From positions 1 through 64,000 of the forward strand of contig UYFQ01000093.1 of NCBI GenBank assembly GCA_900617105.1: a stretch of 64,000 bases of DNA. Direction: 5' to 3'. Made by a program: the position numbers and the translations under genes. Below are positions 15,392-55,955 of the stretch, one piece after another. This DNA is from Hydrurus foetidus. Taxonomy: Eukaryota. A model generated the notes under the pieces. The model had not been told where the DNA came from, made no database searches, and saw only the letters and a program-made list of their open reading frames with translations. Every line of letters begins with the position of its first letter. The stretch's first letter is position 1.

Positions 15392-15819
15392 GCTGTAGAA
15401 GACGATCGCTGAGAATAGTCACAGCAGCTATCCAAATAAAATTTCTAATCACCCCTTCGACAAAAATAACAACTGCAAACACACAAATCGCCACGATACC
15501 CTCTGCCTTTAACTAACATGAATCGCCGAATGAAATAACTGAAATCACCTGATAAGTAAGCTTCCAGCAAAGCCAAAGATGGAGATGAGACTAACTGTGT
15601 AACGGCAATAGTCCAGGGATCGATTTGTGGATCTGGAAACCTCTCCAAGATTCCTGATTCCTGATCCCCCGTCTGACCAGACTGTGACACAGCTTGAGAC
15701 AACTATATTGAGTACAATCTGAAAATCTGACCTTCTGCTCTCAGAAAACGTCCCATCAGTTGAACATCGAGTGTCCTGCAATCAGTTGCACGAGAGATTT
15801 GGAAAGATGGAGGACAGTC

Positions 15820-16691
15820 TCGAGATATTAACTTATTCTTGAACTTATTCCCCAGATTTCCGAATAAAAGACGTCTCACAGTAGCTCTTACATCAGAATA
15901 ATCATCGGCTGGCAGCTTAGTATAGGTTGTAGACGAAATTCCTGCCGATATTATCTTCTTGAGATGGTATTTGTTATCGCATGATGTATTCGTGACATTG
16001 TAATTTATTCGGGATTATTGTTAATTGAGCAGAGAGATATTTGAATCGTACGCTCGACATATCGGTGAGGAAGCAATCTCCACTAGTATCGCTCGAATGT
16101 TTTATGTTGAAAAATACTCACAAATTTGTGCGTTCTCTTTACGGTACGAATAAATTGGACATTGCATCTCTCCCGTTTTTACCGCAGACCAATCAGGGTC
16201 AATCAATATTAACTAAATCTAACGATTTTTGGTGAATTCAGGTGAGAAAAGGCGTCCGTATCGGCGGGCCCTCAGCAGCAGTGCTCCACAATCGGCAAAC
16301 AGCATTTTGTTAGCTCAGTGACACTTCGTAACAATTTCAAATGCTTCGAGCGCAAACCCCACATTAACAAATTCTCGAGTTCAGAGTCCAGATTTTTTTT
16401 CTCTTTTTTTACTGTGTAGTCTAGAGAAAAAAATGAGTGACATACCGACGGGGGGTCACACACACTACGTGGTGCGTATACGGTTCCAACTGCACGGACG
16501 CACGAACATGTTCCGATGTACGTACTTGATGATCTCATGGAACCCCCTTGATGATCGAATCTTTTTTGAATCTGAATTTGAATTTGAAACTTCAGTCGAC
16601 CCGACCCCCAGAACAACACAGTTCCGTTTAGATCGATCGCACGAGTTGTTGGCCAACGATTTGTGTTACCCGCTTTGATTGAAGACGTGGA
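15820..16691. repeat. Host-DNA direct duplication, copy 1 (partner 22850-23749)
   Basis: Starts tcgagatattaacttattctt and ends gaagacgtgga, directly against the LTR. Matches copy 2 except for 2 clear SNPs and a net 28-bp indel. Confidence 0.95.
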
Positions 16692-17017
16692 TGTTGACGA
16701 TTCTGAGATCCGAGGCGAAGTACGAACCGGATAGTACAGCGGCGTAGTGGATCAAAGTCAAGACTCGTGGAATAAGACACCTTAGTCAGTAAACACTTGT
16801 TAATTGACTGTGCTTCATCCCTGCTGAAGTCCCCGAGTCCCTTTCAACGCAACAACAATTACATTCTATCTCTACTGTTGAAGTATAAAAACAAAGCACG
16901 GGTCCACACATCTTTCATCACACACACACACACACACACACAGACAAATCCGTACGTCCGTACGAATGCATAAGTACACAGATTGTGTTCGTGTCATAAA
17001 CTAAGATATATCCAACA
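16692..17017 (-). repeat. 3' LTR of copia A (326 bp)
   Basis: tgttgac...tccaaca on the + strand; internal (CA)n tract. Confidence 0.95.
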
Positions 17018-17084
17018 CACCCCTATGCCACATCACAATTGCTTCTATTCACGCATCAAACATAAGTCTCGATATTAAAATAAA

Positions 17085-20000
17085 CTAAGCTAAAATATCA
17101 TCTATCCATCCGGTGATCCCGTATCTCTCTGATTTGAACTGTGCTCCCTGCAGCGGCTTCGTCAGGAGGTTCGCGTACATATCTTTAGTCCCAAGGTGCA
17201 CCACTCGCGCCTCTCCCATGTCCACTCTTTCCTTCAGCCAAAAGTATTTGATCGAGATGTGTCTTGTGCGCTCTCCCGCTGACCGTCCTCGCTCGATGAG
17301 GGACATGCACGACATATTGTCCTGGTACACCGTCACTGGCCCTGGAGTGTGTCCTTGCCCTATAATGAAGTTTCTAAGGTATAGTGCTTGGTTAGTCGAG
17401 TCAGATAGCGCTACCAGTTCCGCTTCCGTGCTCGACTTCGTCACTATCTGCTGCTTCGCTGACTTGCAGTGCACCGCACCCCTCATTCCCACTACTACAC
17501 AGCTTCCCGTGTGCGACTTCCCGTCTGGGTGCACCCCGTACGCCGCATCGATGAGTACACTCACAACGATCCCCTTGCTCCCAGCCTCGAACACTAGTCC
17601 CCTGTCTCTTGTGGCGCATACGTACTTAAGTACCCTCTCTAGTTTCACCAAGTCATCTACGCTGCACTTGGTCACCCGCGTCGTAAGGAATGCTACTGCC
17701 GTCAGACAGTCTGGTCTCGCGCGCTTCGCGAGGTACAGTAGCTTTGCGACATGGCGGTGGAATCGCATTCGCTCCGCCTCAGTCGCCATCGCCGCATCCT
17801 CTCTCACATCGAACAGCCCCTCCGTGGCCGGCGTCCTTGCACCTCCCACAGTGCCGCTCTCCTTCAGCATATCCTCCACATATCCCCGCATCGACACTCG
17901 CGCCACACCTGTTGTTGACATGTCGAAAACCATGCCTAGGTAGTTTACAATGGGTCCATTCTTGCGAGTGATGTCACCGTACCTTGCGATCAGTCCATTC
18001 GACAGAGACTCGATCATTCCTCCGTCAATACTAGTGATCATCAGGTCGTCCACGTGTACTGCGATGCTACACTGGACTCCGTACTCGTTGTGCTTGTTGA
18101 ACACACACATATCATGTGCATTTGGCAAGTACCCCAGTGCTGCCAGCCCATCTCTCAAGTTCTCATACCATAGCGCCGCCGATTCCACACACCCGTATAA
18201 GGCCTTATCAAGTCGTACCACCACACACCCCTTATTATCCACATATTCTGAATATCCTGGTGCGAGCTTTATCATCATGTTGGTCATGTTTCTGTCTAGT
18301 CTCATGTGGACAGTCAGTCCGGTGTTCATATCTGCATTCAAAAATGCCCCGCTAATATCTATCACTGTAACTGCTCGACCCTCATGCGCAGCGATGCTGA
18401 GTAGTACGAACACCGAGCTCGTCCCTACTGTTGGTGCAGACAGATCCTCATAAAGACTCTTGTCCTGCTGGTCTCCCCCTGCGACCAGTCTCGCCTTCAG
18501 TTTCTCGAACTCGCCGCTCGCCAGAAACTTTTCCTTTAAGAACATACTCGAGCGGATGATCCTGTGCTTCTCATCATTAGTCAGCCCCTTCATGTTCACC
18601 GGTGACCACACATTCTTAGCGATCATCTGCCCCAACTCCTTCTCAATAACACTTACCGCTGCATCACCCCTGGTCCTCAGCGCTTCGTTCACTGATATGT
18701 TAAAAATGTATTCCCCCCAGTGTTCTCCGTCTCCGCTGTAGTCTCTCGTCAGCAGTGCTACTTCACCGTCACCTCCTCTGAAGTAACTCATAAAGTCACC
18801 ACGTCTCATACGCGCAACTGGACCCGGTTCTGCTCTCATGCGTGCCTCGAGCACATCCATGTGTGTCTGCCCGGTTCCCTCTTCGGCGATCCCTGCGCCG
18901 CCACCCGCTGTATAGTCAACCGGGACTCCCTGCGCATCTATCCCGTCTATCGGCTCGTCGATATACTGATACGGACCTACTTCCATACTGCTCAAACTTC
19001 CTATCAGTTCGTCCATCTCAACTGGCTTCGGTTTCGCATTAGCTACAAACGGTGTGTAGGTGGGTTCGCTCAGATCCAATGCATCACATGTCATGTCCCC
19101 AATCTCCTCTTGCCACTCGTCTACGGGGTCGTTCACTGGTTCACTCACTTCATCTTCCCCTATAGAAATGACAGATGGGTCCACTCCGTCGTTCACACTT
19201 ACCTCGATAGTGTCGGGCAATCCCTCTCGTATACCGTCATCTTGTGTGTATGACGATGCACGCTCCGTAATCACCCCCTTCCCTTTCTTCCTTCCATCGG
19301 CTAGTGCAAGTTCATTCATACGATTGATTACTGACTCCGGCATCGGCATCACTCGAAAGTGATCGCGATTCACCATTCTCCCTGTAGACAGTGACAGCAT
19401 CCGTACGGTTCCCGTTCTGTTCCCTAACGGTAACATGACCACGCAGTCTTCTGTACGCGGTTTGAGTGATGAATCTGTGTTCGGCACCGTGCATTGTACG
19501 TAGTCGCCGAACGAGCATCTGAAGTCCCTCTTCCCGTCTGGCTTCCTGCCGATGAAGGCCTCCCGTGGGCTGGGGCCTGATTCTCGTATTCCGCCTGTTT
19601 CGTAGTTTAGCCTGGATACGACGTACAAAACACACATGGTGATACCCACAGTCGATAATGTAAAAGGCAAATGGTACGCAACGTGTGATCGTACTCTTTC
19701 CTTTGTAAGTCGAATTTTTCTCTCTATTCGTGCGACGTGCCCTCCAGCTCCGCTGATGTCGACTTCGACTCCGAGTAGTCCTAGCTCGTCGATGAGACTG
19801 ACGACCGCTCCTTCCCCATCACTCATGATTGTGGAGACTCGAAAGTTCTGCGACGCGAGAACCGATCGAAAGTGGGTAATTCCGTTCGTACCTCTACCAC
19901 GCCTCTTGAGGACTTCTTTGACGCTACGTCGGTTTAAATGTATGCAATAGTTAGTCCCAGTGGAGTAGCCACACCGATTAGCACAGCTACTTTATCAATA

Positions 20001-21889
20001 AACATAATATCGATCGATACCACCTGATCTCTTTGTTCGATTTTTGAGCTAACAACGATATCAGCCGATGGACTCGCTCTTTTAGTGGTCTTTCCTTTCA
20101 GTGAGGCCATGTCCTTCCCCCATATAGCGTCAGCTATCTGAAAGTCCCGTGTAGTGATGTCAAAATTACTCCCGCTGTTGACTATCGACATCGCCTGCTC
20201 AACTGTAGGGAACCCCATTCTCGCCATTAGCTCGCGAGCCTGCCTGGCTCGCTCGATCTCCCTCTTAGTAAACAGCTGCGAGTTCTGCGCTACTGTGGTC
20301 ACCATCGCGATTTCGGCTTCGACCTCGCGCCAGTCGCACGAGTAAAACCGTCCTTCGCTGCCTTTCACTTGCTTCCTGCCGAAGCGGTAAGTTCTGTCGC
20401 TCCCCTTCGGTTGCAAGGTGAAAACATCCATTTCGTAGTCGTAGCGTATGATAGCTCCTGCATCAACTTGTGATGCGAATGAAAGTATGTTAGCAGCTGC
20501 CGATCCGCTGTAGAAGACGGTCCCCAGCTCTCCGAACTCGCCTTCCCTATCGACGTTCACTTCGCTTCCGAGATGGATCCCGCTGACTTTGACTGACCGT
20601 GTCGCCTTGCGTATATCTGTAAGTAGACTTGGATTGCTGAATATGTTGAGGGATGCCTCATTGTCTAATAGCACATCGTATCTGGTAAAGCAGCATTTCT
20701 CCTCAGATGCAACTAGAGCCACGCCCCACTCGCTCTCATCGCTATCACCCTCGTCTGTCGGTTCGCTGATCGATACGTGGACTTTTCCCGATGACGATTT
20801 TCGTTGTGGGCAGTCTCTAGCGTAGTGACCATTCTGTTCACAGAGGTAGCATTCTACCTCGGTCAGGGGTTTCTTCTTGGCCCCACCGGTCTTCACGGCC
20901 TTCTTGTCCGTATCCTTCGGCGCACCGGTGTGTGCGCTCCCCGTAACGTATGCCGCGTTGGGTGCACCAGGTGTGGGTGTGAGTGAGTCATCCTCATGCC
21001 AGCCGTTGGCGATGTGGAATGCGTTGGCCAGTATGGGAGGGAATGCACCCGGTTTCCGCCTCAGTGCGTCGTTCTTCATCGAGTCGTGCATCTTGCGGTA
21101 CCGTTTGGGATCGAGTTTCCCGAGGAAGTCGAGAGCCCTCTTCGACTGCGACACCTCCGCAATTCTCACGGCTCGATTCGATTCCACCTGTTCATCGAAT
21201 CTTGATTTGAAAGTCACGAGGAGCTCTCTCTCACCTTGCCTCATGGACCCGTACTTACTCTCTTGTCTGTGTTGGTTGATCTCCATCAGATCGTCATCGT
21301 CACCAAACATGTGGGTGAGGTGAGTCCGTCTGATCATCGTCCATAGCATGATGCAGTCTAGTGTCATGTACGCCTCGTGGAAATCTTCTTCCTCTCGCAC
21401 TCTCGTCTGCGATGCCAGCGACATACGTCTCCACATCATAGGGTAGAGCGTACGTTCGTGCTCTTTTTGGGCCTTGAGGTCGCGTTTTCTCTGGATATAC
21501 TCGTCTTCTTTGAGCTTCGCTCTCGAGCGTTCTGACGCTTTCCTCCTTCGCTCGTTTCGAACATCTCGCGCCGCTTTGCGTGCCACCTTCTCGCGGACCG
21601 CGGCAGCGGCTAATATGGGGTCTTCTGCGGGTAGTTCTGAGTCGATTACCTCATCGTCCGACTCTGAACTCGAGCTTTCCTCTGACGAATCCATAGGTTG
21701 GTCCCTATAGGAGTGTTTCGGGAGCTCATACCGCATGTTTGTGGTAAAGAACATCCCCACTATGCCGTATAGCTCGGTGGCTATAACCTGCATGTGTTCT
21801 CTCCATTTGATAACATTGGTTGTTTTGCCGAACTGTAGTATACAATCCTCTGTAGTTTTTACAGCTTCGACAGCACGTTTTGGAGGCAT
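17085..21889 (-). pseudogene. Copia A gag-pol polyprotein, interrupted by a TAA (19934-19936) and a 1-nt frameshift near 19885
   Basis: ATG at 21889 (MPPKRAVE). Motifs: CYLCEQNGHYARDC; LLDNEAS protease; IDIMF/SDGE/RIE integrase; KARLVAGG, DISGAFLNA, LYG, HVDDL RT; IDAAY, EAEL, QDN RNase H. The lesions may be assembly errors. Confidence 0.85.
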
Positions 21890-21902
21890 GATAATGCCGA
21901 CG

Positions 21903-21913
21903 ACAGTCAATTA
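21903..21913 (-). promoter_or_regulatory. Non-tRNA primer-binding site of copia A (taattgactgt), complementary to LTR 22023-22033
   Basis: Directly abuts the LTR end; 11-nt exact complement of acagtcaatta. Confidence 0.75.
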
Positions 21914-22241
21914 TGTTGACGATTCTGAGATCCGAGGCGAAGTACGAACCGGATAGTACAGCGGCGTAGTGGATCAAAGTCAAGACTCGTGGAATAAGAC
22001 ACCTTAGTCAGTAAACACTTGTTAATTGACTGTGCTTCATCCCTGCTGAAGTCCCCGAGTCCCTTTCAACGCAACAACAATTACATTCTATCTCTACTGT
22101 TGAAGTATAAAAACAAAGCACGGGTCCACACATCTTTCATCACACACACACACACACACACACACAGACAAATCCGTACGTCCGTACGAATGCATAAGTA
22201 CACAGATTGTGTTCGTGTCATAAACTAAGATATATCCAACA
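21914..22241 (-). repeat. 5' LTR of copia A (328 bp), also serving as the 3' LTR of the truncated tandem copy
   Basis: Same sequence as 16692-17017 plus one CA unit. Flanked by the PBS position on one side and a second PPT on the other. Confidence 0.95.
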
Positions 22242-22845
22242 CACCCCTATGCCACATCACAATTGCTTCTATTCACGCATCAAACATAAGTCTCGATATT
22301 AAAATAAACTAAGCTAAAATATCATCTATCCATCCGGTGATCCCGTATCTCTCTGATTTGAACTGTGCTCCCTGCAGCGGCTTCGTCAGGAGGTTCGCGT
22401 ACATATCTTTAGTGCCAAGGTGCATCACTCGCGCCTCTCCCATGTCCACTCTTTCCTTCAGCTAAAAGTATTTGATCGAGATGTGTCTTGTGCGCTCTCC
22501 CGCTGACCGTCCTCGTTCGATGAGGGACATGCACGACATATTGTCCTGGTACACCGTCACTGGCCCTGGAGTGTGTCCTTGCCCTATAATGAAGTTTCTA
22601 AGGTATAGTGCTTGGTTAGTCGAGTCAGATAGCGCTACCAGTTCCGCCTCCGTGCTCGACTTTGTCACTATCTGCTGCTTCGCTGACTTGCAGTGCACCG
22701 CACCCCTCATTCCCACTACTACACAGCTTCCCGTGTGCGACTTCCCGTCTGGGTGCACCCCGTACGCCGCATCGATGAGTACACTCACAACGATCCCCTT
22801 GCTCCCAGCCTCGAACACTAATCCCCTGTCTCTTGTGGCGCATAC
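22242..22845 (-). mobile_element. Truncated tandem copy of copia A (3' UTR, PPT and RNase H end)
   Basis: 604-bp copy of 17018-17621 with 7 substitutions, including a TGG-to-TAG stop at 22462-22464. It ends abruptly, with 4 unmatched nt (agat) before the host duplication. Confidence 0.93.
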
Positions 22846-22849
22846 AGAT

Positions 22850-23749
22850 TCGAGATATTAACTTATTCTTGAACTTATTCCCCAGATTTCCGAATAAAAG
22901 ACGTCTCACAGTAGCTCTTACATCAAAATAATCATCGGCTGGCAGCTTAGTATAGGTTGCAGACGAAATTCCTGCCGATATTATCTTCTTGAGATGGTAT
23001 TTGTTATCGCATGATGTATTCGTGACATTGTAATTTATTCGGGATTATTGTTAATTGAGCAGAGAGATATTTGAATCGTACGCTCGACATATCGGTGAGG
23101 AAGCAATCTCCACTAGTATCGCTCGAATGTTTTATGTTGAAAAATACTCACAAATTTGTGCGTTCTTTATCATGCCCCAGTACTTTTCGCATTTAATTAC
23201 GGTACGAATAAATTGGACATTGCATCTCTCCCGTTTTTACCGCAGACCAATCAGGGTCAATCAATATTAACTAAATCTAACGATTTTTGGTGAATTCAGG
23301 TGAGAAAAGGCGTCCGTATCGGCGGGCCCTCAGCAGCAGTGCTCCACAATCGGCAAACAGCATTTTGTTAGCTCAGTGACACTTCGTAACAATTTCAAAT
23401 GCTTCGAGCGCAAACCCCACATTAACAAATTCTCGAGTTCAGAGTCCAGATTTTTTTTCTCTTTTTTTACTGTGTAGTCTAGAGAAAAAAATGAGTGACA
23501 TACCGACGGGGGGTCACACACACTACGTGGTGCGTATACGGTTCCAACTGCACGGACGCACGAACATGTTCCGATGTACGTACTTGATGATCTCATGGAA
23601 CCCCCTTGATGATCGAATCTTTTTTGAATCTGAATTTGAATTTGAAACTTCAGTCGACCCGACCCCCAGAACAACACAGTTCCGTTTAGATCGATCGCAC
23701 GAGTTGTTGGCCAACGATTTGTGTTACCCGCTTTGATTGAAGACGTGGA
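22850..23749. repeat. Host-DNA direct duplication, copy 2 (continues into the empty insertion site)
   Basis: Copy of 15820-16691 with an extra ~28 bp near 23167-23197; continues gtgga|gaggaaaacg with no LTR. Confidence 0.95.
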
Positions 23750-41132: not shown

Positions 41133-44100
41133 CATTAGAATTTTTGTTTTTTTCGGTACTTTCATTTTCATCATCATTGGTGCTGTCATTTCCGTTATTT
41201 TCACTGCTCTCCATACATATGGAATCGTACGAAAAACCGTGATTTTTATGATTTCTGTGAGACTTAATATTGCTGTCCATATTATCATCAGAATTAGGGT
41301 CAAAGTTTGACAGAACTTCATTTTTACCGTTTTCCATCTTTTCTCGTATATTCGCAGTTATCATCGATTTCACTTTTAGTCTCGATATGTCCGAGACGGT
41401 ACTTACACCTTTGATGTAGTACGTGTCATCGTAACTACTCACCTTGATCTTCTCATTTCTGTTCTCGTCATTAATTTTATTGTTATTTTCATTGTTATTC
41501 TTTTTTCGATTCTCAGTATTATTTTTTGTTTCCCCCTCCCCTACATTTTGGTCTCCAGTGTCATAAAACTGGCAAAATTTCGGATTTAATCCCGTACTAT
41601 TTCCTTCTTTCCGTGTAACTTCGCCATGTCCGTACAAAGAGTAACGTACGTTCTCATTGAATACTCCTGTTACTTTGTATTTTTTTTCTGTTTCTGATTC
41701 CAACGTGCCAGCTCGCTCTCTTTCGCCCTCCCCTTCTATTTTCACTATTGCCATTCCACTTTCTGTCTCGTTTGTTGAAGGTTTCAAAATGTATTTTCGA
41801 TTATTTTCCTCTGACCAATTTTCATTTTCATTTATGCATCCCGCTTTTCTTTTATTATAACTTGAATAAAAACCCTGTGATCTGTCCGTACGAGATCCAA
41901 CTACGTGCGTTACAGAACTGTACTTATCGTACGTTCTACTTGTGAAGTGTTGCGCAGAATCGAAATAGCTGTTACCGTTGTTCATATCGTAAAATATGTT
42001 ACTATTATTATTGTAATCATTTTGTCTGTCGTGTGTCCCACTTATGTTGCTTACATTCGTAACACTTGAGCTTAAAATGATTGTATTATTGGTGTTAGAT
42101 TCGTTGTAATTATCTGAATATTTTTTAATATTGTTTTTGCTGCTGCTATTTAAATCTTTCGAACTGTCACTATTCGTCTCATTTTTATTTTTACTACTAT
42201 AATAAGGATTTTTGTTTTTATAATCATTAACAACAATATCATCTTTCTTAGTGTCATTATAATTGCCATCGTTTTTGTAATTTCTATAAGCCTCGCAATG
42301 ACTATAATCGACAATTCTGCTATCTTTCAAATTGCCGTTTAATGTGTTACACATTTCTGTCGCTAATGAATATTTGGAATCATTTTTTTCGTCATTGTGA
42401 TTCCTGTTAAAATTATCATTCTCAGCTTGATTAGAATTGGTATTTTTATCACCGAAATTAGCATTTTGATTATCAGTAGAATCCGTCAAAAAATTTCCGT
42501 CATATATTCCCGAATCCGTAATATGATTATGAACACGGTTTACCAGCGTTTCACCGAATCTAGCTAAATGATCTAATTCCGTGTAAGAGGATTGCAATGT
42601 AATTGCTTTATTTGATTTTTTCAACCAGAACATTAGATCATTAACTTCATCGTCTTTCGTCAGAAATGTGCTCAATGCTATACGGATTCTGTCGTCGCTC
42701 AAACCGGATAAATCATCCGCTGAATTTATACTAATTTTTTTGGAGATGACAGAGAACAAGGATAGAAAAATGAGAGATAACAGTGAGAGAGAGTAGGATG
42801 AAAATTCAATTAACGAATGCTTGATAGGGTTAAGGCGAGACGGGTAGAGATGAGAAGTAGCTATGCGTTACTTAATCCGTGATCTAGCGATGGATAGATG
42901 AACACGGAAATAAGGTTCGTAAGAGGGGTGGTAATTAACAACACAATTCTATATTTCTAAAATTCTCACCTGTCTGTAAGTGCGTACATGTCGTTGATTC
43001 CGAGGGATCGTGGATCTGGAGATTCCGAATCTTCACCACTCGGTCCTCTGAAGTTGAAGAAAAAGAAAAAATTAATTGAATTGCGTACAAATAAAATCTA
43101 AATCAAACATAGTTCTGTTGACAATATCAGGACAATAGCAGGAGTACACAGTCAGTAAAGAAGAGATGTCAAGATGGACTCGAAAACACTTACACTCCGA
43201 TCAAGTTCACCCTGGTAGAGGCATCTTCGTACCTTTCAAGCTTAGAACACCCACTGTTGTTACATCCATCTAACGTGATAAAAATACAGATAATAGAGCA
43301 AATGATAAGTTGATTACAATATGATGCATATTAACTGAAAATAAATGATTGAAAAGTACAAGATGACGAAGTAAAGGCATGCGACAGATATGAGAACAGT
43401 CGAATCCTAGTGCAGAAAGTAATGACGATAAACATAAAAAGAAAATAGTCGAGGAGAAACAGTAGAAAAGAACAAGATGAAAATATGTGGAAATAATTCA
43501 TCATTGAATAGAAAACAGAAACAAGAGACACAATCAGTACGTACGTACGTACCTGTCGCATCATCTGTAAGTGTGCCCGGTAAGAAAGATCCCTCTAACG
43601 CCATCGTGAGAGCCTACAGAAAAACAATGTTACGAGAGACTGTAAGAAATAATGTGACCATTAAAATGTACACATCGCAAACAGAAATGCACACACACTG
43701 CTTCTTCCTCGCTTGTCCAAGGTGAATTCCTTCGAAACAAAAATGTCTAATAGTTGATGTTATCTGCTGTGTTATGGTATGAGCCCAGCAGTAAAGCAAA
43801 TCAAATATCATGTTACATCATTGCATCACATTGTATCTCATGACATGAAATCAGTCAATCAACTCGAAATGACATTTCCATGTAGAAACTAAAAATGCCA
43901 ATCACAAATAGATACCAAAATTCAGCATCTATTTGATCCGGTCAAGAATAATGTAAACAAGAGTGTAATCGCATCATAAAATATCACACGAACAATAATA
44001 TTTGCAAAAATACTAACGACAATAGAAAAACAAGTACAAAGAATAAGAGAAAAATGAATAAACAATGAGTACAATTAAAAAATAGAGGTAAAATATACCT

Positions 44101-45025
44101 TGTTTCTGCCGGAGTTTTGCCTTACTGTACTAGTAGTTTTTACATTTTTTCTCGCCATTTCTCTTTCAGATGATAACATTTTTTCCAACCAAATTCTGCG
44201 CAATATTTTCAATTCTTTTCTAGAACTATCGATTAAAGCACAATTAATGTGATTTATATTTAATTGTAATGTCGAGTCATTGGAAGGGATTTTATTTTTG
44301 TTATTCAACTTGTTACTGTTCGTGTTTTCGTTATTTTGATTATCATTATCATTTTTGTTGTTATTATTACTATGATTGTTATTATCATCATTATTATTAT
44401 TAACATTATTATTATTATTGTGACAAATAGTAATGTTATTACTTCGGATGTTTTTGTCATTGTTACTACTCGCGCTTGAAGACGAGTGCCGATCCACAAC
44501 TTGTTTCGATTCCAGATCATAACTATTTCTTGACGTGTCGTCTTCTTCGTTATCGTTGTGTTTCACTCGATTTTCATTGCTACCTTCGGTCAGAATTTCA
44601 CCATCGGACTTTGAGGCTATACTGTCTGGATTACTGCTAGCATTTGAATTCTCAGGTTGATAGTCATATCTAGACAGCGGTTGAAATATTCTTTTTCCTA
44701 TGCAACTATCTCCAGTAAACTTCTTCGTTATTCTCATCGGGTCGCAATTTAAGATACTGGAGAGATGTGTTCTCAGCGTAGTTCCGTCTGGAACATCCAA
44801 AGTTCCTAAAGATTAGTTGAAGTTTCTTAAGGATCCTGTCGAGCTGTAGGAACTTTCATTTGCAATTATAAATCACACAGACTCACCATTCTCGAAATCT
44901 TTGATAATGCGACTTGTGTAATTCTCCTCCTCGATTGTCCACTTTCCTCTTCTAAAGTTGATTTGAGTAAGTTCTTTCGGAAGAACTTCATCATTAGAAG
45001 TGGTGTATGATGTGTTGCCCGTCAT
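39949..45025 (-). CDS. Stramenopile-type RGKWT/CDPMRI-domain protein (Myb/SANT-like start) with a long Asn-rich low-complexity C-terminus
   Basis: FRRGKWTIEEENYTSRIIKDFENG, 81-bp intron (44806-44886), then TLDVPDGTTLRTHLSSILNCDPMRITKKFTGDSCIGKRIF. Small phase-consistent exons lead to a ~2.8-kb terminal exon ending at 39949. Alternative ATG at 45067. Confidence 0.8.
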
Positions 45026-49100: not shown

Positions 49101-50032
49101 GGAAATGAGCTCAGACAAATAAGTTCATGACAAATCATTTCAGAAAATAATTTCATTTGCATAAATGTCATTATACTTACCTAAAGCTTTTTCTGTCGTT
49201 GTTGGTTTTGGTCCTCTTTTTGGCCCTTTTTTCGTGTCCCCTATTTTCGTGATATCCACCGACATAATTTCATATTCTGAAATTGGCACAGCCGTCACTA
49301 CACCCATATATCTACAATTACATATGTGCGTACGTCAGCGCGTGATGCAATTTATTGAAGAAGTGATAGATAGCAAGTGATAGATAGTCTAGGAAATAAA
49401 TGAGGTACGATGTGTTCACATGTCTTCAAATCTATCAATCAATATTAAATTCCAACGCTATTGCTCATGACTGATGAAATATTTAGATGGCGATAAGTGG
49501 CTAAACCATTTCAAGTGGCTGAGGGTTGTGTTGACAAAATATTCGAAAAATTGGGTGACACTGCTTAGTCTGCAATGGCATCAATCAGAATATCCTTGAT
49601 CAAATCTAGTTGTGTCGGTGATGATGAACAAAGTCGATCTCACCCGTTGAACTTGTTGCCGTACAATCCTGTGACCATATGATATCCTCTATTTGCAAAA
49701 TAAGTGTGAAGGACACCAGCCCAAACTGTTGAAACTTCTTGTAGACAAATGATCGCCTTCGAATCTGTTTCAATATCTAGCTTCTGTTTCAGAACTCCTA
49801 GTCTGTAACTTGCCTTCAGATCCTCTGGTCTGCATGATGTAAAGTAGTCAGCACCTCCCAAATCGCTTGATAAGACGTTGTAAGTAGTGACTCTGACTGC
49901 TGATGCCATACTCAAGTTTCTGGTATTAACTCTTCTGTTTAAATTGTTTCTCAAACTGGACCCTGGTAAAAAAGCGATTGTTCGGCTACAGAAGGAAGAG
50001 ACAGAAAGCATCAAGACTATTGCAGAAATCAT
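46110..50032 (-). CDS. Endonuclease/exonuclease/phosphatase (EEP) family protein, CCR4/nocturnin/Angel-like, with bipartite plastid-type leader
   Basis: Motifs VTTYNVLS, ICLQEV, GTYHMP, LVGDFN, FTNW, TLDYIF and PSDH in the expected order across GT-AG exons. N-terminus MISAIVLMLSVSSFCSRTIA/FLP followed by an S/R/N-rich transit-like stretch. Confidence 0.9.
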
Positions 50033-50206
50033 GGGGATTTCTAACCGAAGCAGCTGAGTCGCCGCTGCTGGTCGGTATGATTCCAGAGAGACTACAATGT
50101 CATGGTGATTTTGTCGCCACAGAAATCGAACAATAATTCGGAGGTGTAATTTTGATAGGAGAAGTCGTTGAATGCTCTACCAAAAGCATCGAATACCAAG
50201 TCTGTG

Positions 50207-50536
50207 TGTTGGAGATATCTTAGTTTATGACACGAACACAATCTGTGTACTTATGCATTCGTACGGACGTACGGATTAGTGTGTGTGTGTGTGTGCGTGC
50301 ATGCGTGACGACGATGTGTGGACCCGTGCTTCGGCTCGGTACTTCAAGAAGTAGTGTAGGATGTCTTTTGTTGTTGCGTTGAAAGGGACTCGGGGACTTC
50401 AGCAGGGATGAAGCACAGTCAATTAACAAGTGATTACTGACAACCCAAAGCTTATTTCACGAGCCTTGACCGAGCGTTCTTCAACCGCTGTACACTCACC
50501 CACGTACGTGTCGGCTGAACCGAAGATCCGTCAACA
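50207..50536 (+). repeat. 5' LTR of copia B
   Basis: tgttggaga...cgtcaaca; same sequence as 55492-55821. Confidence 0.97.
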
Positions 50537-50546
50537 TAATTGACTG
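50537..50546 (+). promoter_or_regulatory. Non-tRNA primer-binding site of copia B (taattgactg), complementary to LTR 50416-50425
   Basis: Directly abuts the LTR end, has no TGG start, and is the exact reverse complement of cagtcaatta. Confidence 0.75.
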
Positions 50547-50560
50547 GAGCAGGCATTCCA

Positions 50561-53500
50561 ATGCCTCCCAAACGCGCCGCAGAAGCTTTCAAAAGTACAG
50601 AGGAGTGTACGCTTCAATACGGCAAACACAACAACATCATAAGATGGAGAGAACACATGCAGACGGTAGTAACCGAGCTATACGGGATAGTGGGCATGTT
50701 CTTCTCCACCAACGTGAGATATGAGCTCCCGAGAATTTCATACAGGGATTACCCTGCGGATTCGTCGTCGGAGAGCTCCAGCTCGGATGAGGACGACGAC
50801 GACGGGGGCGACGATCAACCACAGCCAGCACCTGACCCAGAGGCCGTAGCGTACGCTGCTGCGAAACCTGCTCGTGTCGCCGCCAGACTGGCGAGAAACG
50901 AGAGAAGACGAAAAGCGTCGGAACGTTCGAGAGCGAAGTTTAAGGAGGATGATTATATTCAGAGGAAGAGAGATGTCAAAACGCAACGTGAGAACGAACG
51001 TACAATGTACCCCATGATGTGGAAGCGTATGTCGCTACTATCGCAGAGTAGGGTGAGGGAGGAGGAAGAGTTCAAGACCGCGTATGACACCCTGGATTGT
51101 GTTCTGCTGTGGACACTCATCAGAAGAACCCACCTCACACACATGTACGGTGGAGACGAGTCACTGCAAGAGTACAACCAACACGAACAGGAGAGTAAGT
51201 ACGGGTCAATGAGGCAAGGTGAGAGGGAACATATCGTCACCTTCAAGAACAGATTTGATGAACAGGTAACAGCGAACGCAGCCGTGGGGATCGCCGCAGT
51301 GTCGGAGTCAAAGCGAGCATTGGACTTCCTAGGGAAACTCGACACCCGTCGGTACAAGGTCATGTTGGACGATATGAAGCACGACGCGCTACGGCGCAAA
51401 CCGGGTGCGTTCCCCACCACGCTCGCCCTAGCATTCCACATCTCGTCAGAGTGGAATGACCGAGTGCCCGTCCATACACCCACTCCGACACCTGCGGGTG
51501 CGAACGCGGCGTACGTTGCCGAAGGTGCACATGTCACTATGACCAAGGACCCGGCCGAGAAGAAAGCGGGGAAAGCCGGAGGGGGCAGTAAGAAATCAAT
51601 AGCGGATGTGGAGTGTTACAAGTGTGAAACTAAAGGGCACTACGCAAGGGATTGCCCACAAAAGAAATCGTCATCGGAAAAAGTCCACGTCACGACGGGG
51701 AGTCGGACGAGGAGTACGAAGGTGAATCGAGCGAGTGGGGAGTAGCACTTGTGGCTGCAGACGAAGTGTGCTGCTTCTCGCGATTTGACGTGCTACTAGA
51801 CAACGAGGCGTCACTAAATATATTCAGCAATCCTGATTTGCTTACCGACGTTAGAAAGTCCGAGAGAACAATAAAAGTGAGCGGAATTCAACAGGGAGCG
51901 GGAGTGTCAGTCGATCGGGAAGGAGAGTTCGGCGAATTTGGGACGGTGTACTACAGCGGTTCAGCCTCAGCAAATATTCTGTCATTTGCTTCCCAAGTCG
52001 ACTCAGGGGCGTCGATTCGGTACGACCACCTGAGCGACTGCTTCACTCTCCAGCCGAAGGGAAGCACGAGGATCTATCGCTTCGGAAGAAAGCGTGTCGT
52101 TGGGAGCGAGGGAAGATTCTATTCCTGTGATTGGAGAGAGATGGAGTGCGGGAGCGCACTTGTCACGACAGTAGTCGAGAATTTAAAGGCATTTACGAAA
52201 CGCGAAATAGAGCAGGGCAGGCGTGCCCGCGAGCTACTGGCCAGAATGGGATTCCCGACGGTAGAACAGGCGATGTCAATCGTCAATAGCGGGAGCAATT
52301 TTGACGTGACAGCAAGAGACTTCCAGATCGCAGACGCGATATGGGGGAAGGACATCGCATCGCTGAAGGGTAAAACAACGAAGAGAGCTACAGCCGTCGC
52401 CGATATAACCGTGAGCACAAAAATCTTACAACGGGATCAGGTGTTATCGATTGACATTATGTTTATAGAGAAATTAGCTATTCTAGTTGGGGTGGCTACT
52501 CCGTTAGGACTAACTATCGCATACAGTCTTAACACAGCTGATCTAAAGAAGCCGGCGAGGACAGCAGGGCAAGTCAAGATCGGCATCAACCATTTCCTCG
52601 GTGTCCTCGCGTCTCAAAACTTTCGGACGTCCATCATCATGAGCGACGGAGAGGGGGCGGTCACCAGCCTTGTCGACGAGTTGGGAAAACTCGGAGTTGA
52701 AGTCGACGTGAGCGGAGCTGGGGGTCACGTGGCTAGAATCGAGAGAAGAATAAGAGTTATTAAAGAAAGGGTACGGGCTCACGTAGCGTACCACCTGCCG
52801 TTCACCCTGTCGACCGTGGGTATAGCCATGTGTGTACTGTACTGTATATCTAGGCTGAACTACGAACCGGCCGGTTTACGGGGATACGGCCCAAGTCCCC
52901 GCGAGGCGTTTATAGGAAGGAAGCCAGATGGTAAGCGAGATTTTCGTTGTTCGTTTGGCGACTACGCGCAGTGTACCGTACCAAACACAGATGCAGGACT
53001 AGGGAGTCGCACAGAAGACTGCGTGGTGATGCTCCCGCTTGGCAACCGTACAGGGTCCGTGAGAATGCTCTCTCTGAGTACTGGACGACTGGTGAATAGA
53101 GACCAATTTAGAATATTACCGATGCCAGAATCGGTAATCAAGAGGCTTAACGAACTTGCGCTAGCAGACGGGCGTGTGAAAGGTAAAGGTGAGCTGTACG
53201 AGCGACCGTTGTCGTACAAACAGGACGGAGACTCTAGGGGGAATCTACCAGACACGATCGAGCCTACGGTGAACGACGGTGTAGACCCATCCATATTACC
53301 GCTAGACGGAGATGAGCATGGGGAAGCGATAGACGAGAGACCGGACAGTGGGGGTGAACCGGTTGAAAACGGGGGTGACTACCGGGATCAGCAGTACGAT
53401 AGCGGTGAGACACTGTACGAGCCGAATCAGCTAGACGTAAGCGAGCATCATAGTGAACCAACACATCATGCACACGATACTGAGTCCGACCACGCAATGG

Positions 53501-55425
53501 ACGACCTGATAGCCAGCATGAACGGCATGCGAGCGGGACCGCATGACGACCACACAAATGAATCTGGAATTGTCGATGAGAGAGGAGTACCGGTAGACTA
53601 TGCAGCGGCAAGCGGCGAGTGGGACGACCACACTGATTCGAGGGATGCACTGAGTGGTGCGAATGAGTCACAACCGGCGTATGCGAGTCCTCAACGGTAC
53701 GGACTGAACAAGCATGCAGTGATAGATTTCTTCAGGAACGGAAAAGGGACAGCGCTGCTGACGCGCAACTACGACGGAGACGGTACGGACTGGGGCGACT
53801 ACGTGCTCAATATCTCGGTGAACGAAGCGCTGCGCACAAGGGGTGATGCTGCAGTGAGTGTGATAGAGAAAGAGTTACGACAAATGGTTGACAAAAAGGT
53901 GTGGGAACCGGTCGACGTGAAAGAGCTATCGTCGGACGAGAAGCGGCGTATCATCAGGTCGAGTATGTTCCTTAAGGAGAAGTTCCTCGCGAGTGGTGAG
54001 TTCGAGAAGCTGAAGGCACGCCTCGTCGCGGGAGGCGATCAGCAGGATCGTGACCTGTATGATGACCTATCCGCGCCTACTGTTGCGACGTGTTCAGTGT
54101 TCACTCTGCTAAGCATAGCAGCACACGAGACGAGAAGCATCACTGTGATTGATATCAGCGGTGCTTTCCTGAACGCAGATATGACAACAGGACTACCTGT
54201 ACATATGAGGTTGGACAGAAACATGTCGAACATCATGATCAGACTGTCACCGGGATACTCGCGGTTCACAGACCACAAAGGATGCGTGGTGGTGCGACTA
54301 GATAAAGCGCTGTACGGGTGTGTGGAGTCGGCGGCGCTATGGTACGAGAATCTGAGGGTAAGCCTATCGGAACTAGGGTATGTGCCGAATGCGCACGACA
54401 TATGCGTGTTTAACAAGCATGACGAATACGGGGTGCAGTGCACCATCGCCGTACATGTGGATGACCTACTGGTGACTAGCAAGAATGGTGCGATGATTGA
54501 GTCAGTGGCTAGTGGGCTGAAAAGAAGGTACGGCGATATCACTAGGAAGGATGGACCTGTAGTAAACTACCTAGGCATGGTGTTCGACCTTACCACCACA
54601 GGTGTTGCACGCGTGTCGATGACCGGCTACGTGGAGGACATGCTCAAGGAAAGCGAGGCGAAGGGGGGTGCGAGGACGCCGGCGACAGAGGGACTGTTCG
54701 AAGTGAGAGAGGATGCAGAGATGGCCACCGAGGAGCAGCGTATCAAGTTCCATCGCCTAGTGGCGAAGATGCTGTACCTCGCGAAGCGTGCAAGACCGGA
54801 CTGTCTGACGGCGGTGGCATATTTGGCGACTCGGGTAACTCGGTGCACATCAGACGACCTCGTGAAGCTGGACAGACTGCTCAAGTATGTGAGCGCGACG
54901 AGGGACAGGGGGCTAGTGTTCGCAGCTGGGAGTAAGGGGATCGTAGTGAGTGTACTTATCGATGCAGCGTATGGGGTGCATGCAGACGGGAAGTCGCACA
55001 CCGGGAGCTGTGTGGTAATCGGAGAGCGTGGTGCGGTGCATAGCAAGTCAGCCAAGCAGCAGATCGTGACCAAGTCGAGCACGGAGGCGGAGCTGGTGGC
55101 ACTATCTGACTCCACTAACCAAGCATTACACGTCAGACATTTTATCATAGGGCAAGGACACGCGTGCGGACCGGTCACCGTGTACCAAGATAACATGTCA
55201 TGCATGTCGCTTATCGAAAGAGGACGGTCAGCGGCGGAGCGCACCCGCCACATAGCCATCAAGTACTTCTGGCTTAAGGAGAGAGTGGATCAAGGGGAAG
55301 CGAGAGTGAGACACCTTGGGACCAAGGAAATGTACGCGAATCTTCTGACGAAGCCGCTGCAGGGGACACAATTCAAGTGCGAGAGACAGGGGCTCACGGG
55401 CTGGGACGATGAGGCAGTAGTTTAG
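50561..55425 (+). CDS. Copia B gag-pol polyprotein, with one frame break in the G-run near 51697-51700
   Basis: ATG at 50561 (MPPKRAAE); CYKCETKGHYARDC knuckle; pol frame open to 55425 with all PR/IN/RT/RH motifs. Confidence 0.9.
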
Positions 55426-55491
55426 ACATTATCTTGTGAAGAATTATGCGTGATGCGTGAACAGTGATGATTGTGATGTGGCATAGGGGTG

Positions 55492-55821
55492 TGTTGGAGA
55501 TATCTTAGTTTATGACACGAACACAATCTGTGTACTTATGCATTCGTACGGACGTACGGATTAGTGTGTGTGTGTGTGTGCGTGCATGCGTGACGACGAT
55601 GTGTGGACCCGTGCTTCGGCTCGGTACTTCAAGAAGTAGTGTAGGATGTCTTTTGTTGTTGCGTTGAAAGGGACTCGGGGACTTCAGCAGGGATGAAGCA
55701 CAGTCAATTAACAAGTGATTACTGACAACCCAAAGCTTATTTCACGAGCCTTGACCGAGCGTTCTTCAACCGCTGTACACTCACCCACGTACGTGTCGGC
55801 TGAACCGAAGATCCGTCAACA
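55492..55821 (+). repeat. 3' LTR of copia B
   Basis: Same sequence as the 5' LTR; followed by the TSD. Confidence 0.97.
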
Positions 55822-55955
55822 CTGTGCAGTACTGAAATCAAATCAGTCACCAACTTTAACTTGAATTGAATTGCAAATAGCCGCTTGCGAAGCTCAATCC
55901 TCCTCAGAATACTGAGTATCTCGCCGCAGGAGGAGCATCACCAAGCGCTGTCATC

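Follow-up and report, generated by a model that had tools for sequence, protein, structure and literature searches.

Family-specific complementarity between LTR and primer-binding site suggests Tf1-like self-priming in a protist Ty1/copia clade

Introduction

The stretch of DNA analysed here (64,000 nucleotides, hereafter the window) carries two Ty1/copia elements, designated A and B, whose PBS do not begin with TGG as that of a tRNA-primed copia element would. The locus raises the question of which RNA primes their reverse transcription. The original prediction, which had noted the lack of a TGG-type PBS in both elements correctly, was that they prime with the beginning of their own transcript. 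To our knowledge, experimental proof of self-priming is confined to gypsy elements of fission yeast. The process is described as established for Tf1, and as predicted for Tcn1 and for copia elements of the TAR lineage (PMC6317226). In Tf1, the RNA's initial 11 bases anneal to the PBS, and RNase H cleavage falls between bases 11 and 12 (PMC7175516). The TAR proposal (TAR/Houba/Osr-1, a lineage of plant copia), which the original prediction had mentioned correctly, covers 89% of 203 elements and uses as its criterion a match of at least 10 bp that starts 0-5 bp after the 5' LTR (PMC6317226).

Results

The two elements and their surroundings

Element B is a complete copia element with identical LTRs, a TSD, a CCHC-bearing Gag and an RVT_2 pol frame (Table 1). 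Its TG...CA LTRs with TSD, its RVT_2 domain and the position of integrase before RT are those of Ty1/copia; protease, integrase and RNase H were called by eye from motifs in the translation. The ending of the polypurine tract of B, GGGGTG, also occurs in four of the related loci described below (L001, L006, L010 and L013). The pol frame of B is broken relative to gag, where relatives have one ORF. Elements A and B each contain one such frame break, at different places (about 51634-51745 in B; 19934-19991 in A), in a region that is part of a single ORF of about 1600 aa in many relatives; we ascribe the breaks to recent mutation or assembly error, despite the identical LTRs of B.

The upstream LTR of A is no ordinary 5' end: it comes after a polypurine tract and approximately 600 bp of RNase H sequence, and a TSD looked for at this LTR was not found. 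Positions 21913-22845 repeat 16691-17621 at 99% identity, and a stretch of host DNA of about 900 bp (15814-16691) has a second copy at 22844-23749. The region (15814-23749) looks like a 5'-truncated tandem dimer within a duplication, or like a merge of two alleles in the assembly. In RT-RNase H, A and B are 83% identical.

The opposite strand next to element B (region 49640-50206) carries a host gene for a CCR4-like endonuclease/exonuclease/phosphatase, and the insertion lies no more than about 300 bp upstream of this gene; the best organism-named match of this neighbour was an Ochromonadaceae protein (59%, 8th of 78 matches). A host exon at 44075-44812 (minus strand) contains the motif LSSILNCDPMRITKKFTGDSCIGKR, which we take to be typical of a stramenopile protein family. 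No tRNA genes were found in the window.

Table 1. Features of elements A and B, in window coordinates
Feature	Position	Strand	Remarks
B TSD	50202-50206 and 55822-55826		CTGTG, 5 bp
B 5' LTR	50207..50536	+	330 bp, TGTTG...CAACA, identical to 55492-55821
Block identical in A and B around predicted start site	50370..50432	+	63/63 identical
Predicted self-primer of B (first 10 nt of RNA)	50416..50425	+	exact complement of 50537-50546
Predicted local hairpin competing for the self-primer	50416..50439	+	ViennaRNA, -3.9 kcal/mol
Predicted 5-bp hairpin of LTR end with PBS, competing with the primer duplex	50530..50544	+	same letters in A
PBS of B	50537..50546	+	directly 3' of terminal CA; not TGG tRNA-end type
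B gag	50561..51745	+	CCHC zinc knuckle
B protease-integrase-RT-RNase H frame	51634..55425	+	copia order; RVT_2 E 2.7e-24
B polypurine tract	55481..55491	+	GGGGTG end before 3' LTR; from sequence
B 3' LTR	55492..55821	+	motif copy at 55701-55710
A 3' LTR	16692..17017	-	motif copy at 16801-16810
A gag-pol	17085..21889	-	two overlapping frames, 19934-21910 and 17085-19991
PBS of A	21903..21913	-	
A upstream LTR	21914..22241	-	328 bp; polypurine tract and RNase H fragment precede LTR
Predicted self-primer of A	22023..22033	-	11 nt

Self-complementarity at the LTR boundary

Shuffles lead one to expect 0.20 copies of the 10-mer CAGTCAATTA in the window, which in fact contains 6: once in each of the four LTRs and, inverted, directly after both upstream LTRs (50537-50546; 21904-21913). 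The matches that had been claimed for the two elements were both recovered, exact over 10 nt in B, with the partner (50416-50425) 120 nt upstream in its own LTR, and over 11 nt in A (21903-21913 against 22023-22033), and in both the pairing begins at the LTR boundary with zero spacer. With each LTR tested, an equally long match was obtained in 0 of 2000 dinucleotide shuffles, and none of the other start positions in the next 250 nt reached the match length (0/240 in B, 0/239 in A). Both elements have the geometry of self-priming, namely an LTR-adjacent PBS with a complement of at least 10 nt in the LTR.

Elements A and B are to be counted as one test, as the original prediction had itself cautioned, because the LTR motif lies inside a 63-nt block without differences and the RT-RNase H regions are 83% identical. 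The further claim that both motifs were kept amid divergence stands for the PBS, where 17/17 positions are identical at 50530-50546 as against 54/97 upstream and 7/14 downstream, but not for the LTR motif, the retention of which is unspecific since the whole block (50370-50432) is identical. The PBS side of the comparison is the more informative. The block itself is likely to comprise the core promoter, the self-primer and the start of R.

The three runs compared with the element consist of contigs with the behaviour of DNA, and contigs from DNA runs of one study contain many related copies of it. Among the 40 of 54 substitutions listed for two host DNA runs, positions 50547, 50548, 50549, 50550 and 50551 are each affected, and none falls in 50537-50546 or in 50385-50432; within this set, conservation ends where pairing ends, at 50546/50547. 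Host LTR variants that carry an additional G, A or T at 50420, inside the predicted self-primer, were found in 3-6 contigs each in both runs, at 1-2% of depth each, and no PBS insertion matching them was present among the 12 of 13 insertions listed. The copies with LTR insertions may be too divergent to align on the PBS, and are possibly sister families with 11-nt primers. A hint in this direction comes from the protein P0023 (84% identical to the RT of A), in which the upstream in-frame residues H-N-L-T-G are, at the protein level, compatible with a PBS one base longer that matches one of the inserted LTR variants.

Relatives match their own LTRs with different letters

The RT-RNase H region matched 2177 proteins, and DNA of relatives was available from 5 metagenome loci, 18 loci on eukaryotic-looking contigs in prokaryote bins and 9 further regions. 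The metagenome loci (L001-L005) form a single distant family, with L003 lacking the LTR stretch; 6 of the 18 contig loci, in 5 families, were testable and 12 were without a 5' junction or enough LTR; the further regions gave 2 testable members and 2 outgroups, and 5 were set aside. Viral contigs searched for relatives yielded nothing. The testable relatives are 36-52% identical to B in RT-RNase H.

Strict self-matches measured 15 nt in L001/L002, 16 nt in L013/L014, 15 nt in L022, 14 nt in both L018 and L082, 10 nt in L083 and 9 nt in each of L006 and L010. The letters of the self-matches in these eight families are all different, the 3' arm starts at the first base after the CA of the LTR in every case, the LTR partners start 62-221 nt before the LTR end, and only 0-6 of 2000 shuffles gave matches as long. 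With the window family included, a match of at least 9 nt to the own LTR is found in 9/9 families (shuffled mean 0.025 families, maximum 1, in 400 rounds), and a PBS starting with TGG in 0/9. Compensatory change between PBS and LTR motif had been proposed as a test of the original prediction, and complementarity is indeed kept with changed sequence in all eight other testable families, the closest of which is about 50% identical in RT. Loci L004/L005, a decayed variant within the L001 family, fail this test, with a strict match of 4 nt (12 pairs with two G-U, by eye). The two outgroup copia elements have self-matches of only 2-4 nt, and their PBS resemble half-tRNA-Met sites.

The LTR ends of the relatives were set by eye from the polypurine tract, TG start and CA end, with repeats already seen and with a TSD in none. 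Those of L001, L006, L010, L018 and L083 read (C/T)AACA as in the window; those of L013 (atypical), L022 and L082 are less certain, and an alternative LTR end in L082 would place the match 67 nt downstream. Between families, 2 of 72 pairs match over at least 9 nt (shuffled mean 0.18, P about 0.01): the LTR of L010 contains an 11-nt complement of the PBS of B (L010:4890-4900), with a different PBS of its own, and the 9-nt motif of L010 is present in the LTR of L006. These cross-family motifs are due to chance or are relic primers, and are more than chance comfortably allows.

Several observations were made on these loci in passing. Prokaryote bins hold eukaryotic copia contigs (L006-L023, G001, G002, G009), with up to dozens of matches per bin, which is probably binning contamination. 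In L022, where the 3' LTR is absent, the sequence after the element (L022:8700-8900) resembles large-subunit rDNA by eye; this contig is a chimera or reflects insertion near rDNA. A stretch TGTTGCG(C)TTGAA is present in the LTRs of the window family (50373-50386) and of L001 (3172-3185), where it precedes the predicted start by 43 and 62 nt; it was not seen in the other families and is a possible shared promoter element.

Predicted transcription start

In 7/9 families the match has its 5' edge at a CA or immediately behind one (per-position background 7-15%), and in 5/9 this edge falls at TCA (background 2-5%). Element B reads CACA at 50414-50417, so that +1 would be 50416. In the diatom Phaeodactylum, an initiator-like motif TCAH(+1)W is described, and around one mapped start the positions -2 to +2 read CACA (PMC4686930). 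The predicted start at 50415-50417 fits a CA initiator-like context, judged by a short motif from another group.

RNA folding

The duplexes of A and B have modest energies (-10.5 and -12.2 kcal/mol). In predicted equilibrium folds they dominate the first 146 nt, with a probability of 0.90-0.92 when 15 nt of downstream RNA are included, and with 150 nt of downstream RNA the probability falls to 0.03 in B and 0.00 in A, the duplex losing to a primer hairpin and a PBS hairpin. The primer hairpin of B dominates once folds extend at least 60 nt past the PBS, and forcing the A/B duplex costs 2-6 kcal/mol, a predicted gap that could be bridged by co-transcriptional folding or a nucleocapsid chaperone. 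The cis duplex of the eight distant families is, in contrast, the dominant fold with 150 nt of downstream RNA (0.64-0.99). The loss of the duplex in modelled longer folds is the weakest point of self-priming for A and B.

Flanking duplexes of the Tf1 type ('pretzel' arms) were not above chance in any of 4 arms in A and B, nor among 20 arms across families, where the best were reached by 6, 16 and 20 of 300 shuffles; the test was a simple duplex test, which short arms may escape. Folding z-scores of the whole region were unremarkable (-0.67 and -0.08), and an Rfam search of the LTR of B gave 3 matches, all with E 1.5 or worse and none to a ribozyme. In all families the gag start codon lies 17-57 nt past the LTR end.

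Placement

In two quick RT-RNase H trees, both with SH-aLRT only and with long outgroup branches, all self-matching families fall on one side and the two outgroups are excluded (support 92; SH-aLRT 100). Within this clade, L018 and a Fragilaria crotonensis protein form a diatom branch; A and B are 37% identical to the Fragilaria protein in RT-RNase H and belong to a separate branch of the same clade. Among the atlas clusters nearest to RT and Gag, most carry an assignment to diatoms that is based on 1-3 members each. The idea that A and B form a separate group has to be given up: they nest in one clade with diatom copia, and L018, the testable member of the diatom branch, has the same geometry. 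The proposal of self-priming in a stramenopile fares better, in that complementarity is family-specific and such a host is plausible, a chrysophyte-like one being likely from the Ochromonadaceae match of one gene, but a separate lineage is not part of what survives. New here is a probable chrysophyte branch, represented by A and B, within a clade of protist copia for which self-priming is most likely; the trait appears to be ancestral to this large clade, including diatom copia and the probable chrysophyte branch.

Discussion

Comparison with known systems

The geometry of A and B has a close counterpart in Tf1/Tf2 of Schizosaccharomyces pombe, Tj1 and Tf1/sushi, which likewise have the PBS directly after the 5' LTR and an LTR complement of approximately 11 nt (PMC7175516, PMC4600332). 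Tf1/sushi elements are Ty3/gypsy chromoviruses, however, whereas A and B are copia elements with RVT_2 and with integrase before RT; moreover, flanking 'pretzel' duplexes are reported as required in Tf1 (bioRxiv 10.1101/2022.12.06.519325) and none were detected in A and B. The TAR elements (Houba, Osr-1) are copia too, and the matches of A and B lie within the TAR definition of self-priming given above; in contrast to TAR, the host is a protist and not a plant, and among annotated proteins the nearest relatives come from diatoms. An origin independent of TAR may be inferred, since CoDi-like elements have been placed in the literature on a main branch of copia of their own (PMC2774666). With the CoDi elements of diatoms (CoDiI, CoDiII), the comparison goes through the Fragilaria protein, which lies in the same large clade as A and B but on another branch, and the host of A and B is probably not a diatom. 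Fungal GalEa elements, which have a conserved hairpin site, are likewise copia without a tRNA PBS, but their site pairs 12-41 bp downstream and its authors found no complement in the LTR (PMC5445492), whereas the partner here lies 60-220 nt upstream, inside the LTR. A literature search that covered few subscription journals turned up no description of self-priming for copia of the CoDi group or of other stramenopiles; the main text of the CoDi paper contains neither 'priming' nor 'tRNA', and its supplementary table of structural features may bear on the point (PMC2806351).

How the elements are probably primed

Self-priming is well supported because the complementarity is family-specific across distant relatives, and we consider it very probable that A, B and these relatives prime as Tf1 does, with their own RNA in place of a tRNA; the start site, the cleavage and the part played by RNase H are modelled on Tf1 (PMC7175516, PMC5341516). 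In this model, the RNA of B would start at 50415-50417 and its first 10-11 nt would fold onto the PBS, probably assisted by the zinc knuckle of Gag, given that the isolated duplex is marginal. If the element's RNase H is Tf1-like, it would cleave behind nucleotide 10 or 11 and free a 3' end, from which RT would copy about 111 nt, from 50536 back to 50426, and the resulting strong-stop DNA would jump to the 3' LTR via a short R beginning at 50426.

The missing pretzel arms and the disfavoured cis duplex in the longer folds of A and B would both suit a different source for the primer. In this view the pairing is genuine and under selection, yet RNase H does not cut the primer from the same RNA; the primer would come instead from an LTR transcript acting in trans (short or prematurely ended, and possibly from a solo LTR), or a host nuclease would set it free, and the hairpins would serve as a switch. 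In the host DNA runs the summed depth over the LTR motif block far exceeds that over the PBS, which would agree with many LTR copies, depth being no measure of copy number. Against this stand the dominant cis duplex in all eight distant families and the cis route established for Tf1 (PMC7175516), and a release by other means finds no significant ribozyme family over the LTR of B; we therefore regard a primer of this kind as improbable. It is also conceivable that the duplex does another job, such as closure of the 5' leader in the service of packaging, dimer formation or the control of translation, and that something else primes, since the duplex adjoins the gag start codon in all families. 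A leader structure, however, would need no particular register, and in 9/9 families the first base past the LTR, as its ends were set, is also the first of the 3' arm, the point where copying must start, with a TGG site absent, so that there is very little to recommend this reading.

Self-priming has finally to be set against priming of A and B by a host tRNA fragment or small RNA, the LTR match being an A+T-rich protein-binding motif that the elements share and that occurs in both orientations. The window offers only 10-11 nt and one independent case, its motif is found again in the LTR of L010, and half-tRNA priming exists in other copia elements (PMC6317226). Such a primer would have to be a different one in each of 9 families, and the matches to the own LTR would be left unexplained. 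The outgroups with half-tRNA-like sites, moreover, show no self-match. A host-derived primer is, in our view, highly unlikely.

Implications

Extended to the whole clade, Tf1-like self-priming would mean that a deep and abundant branch of Ty1/copia, with members in diatoms, chrysophytes and further protists of aquatic habitats, was independent of tRNA from its origin on. Self-priming would then have been invented a third time, in addition to Tf1/sushi and TAR, in a pretzel-free form with primers of 9-16 nt, in which, in the subclade of A and B, hairpins hide primer and PBS until Gag refolds the RNA; we give this wider picture an even chance of being right. The model of priming makes exact predictions, with a start defined within 3 nt, a primer of 10-11 nt and a strong-stop DNA of 111 nt, in a multi-copy family with a recent insertion. 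If a large clade of protist copia does self-prime, dropping the tRNA primer would be a repeated solution, the RT-RNase H of copia would be able to cut an RNA duplex, and it would be explained why PBS finders based on tRNA miss such elements.
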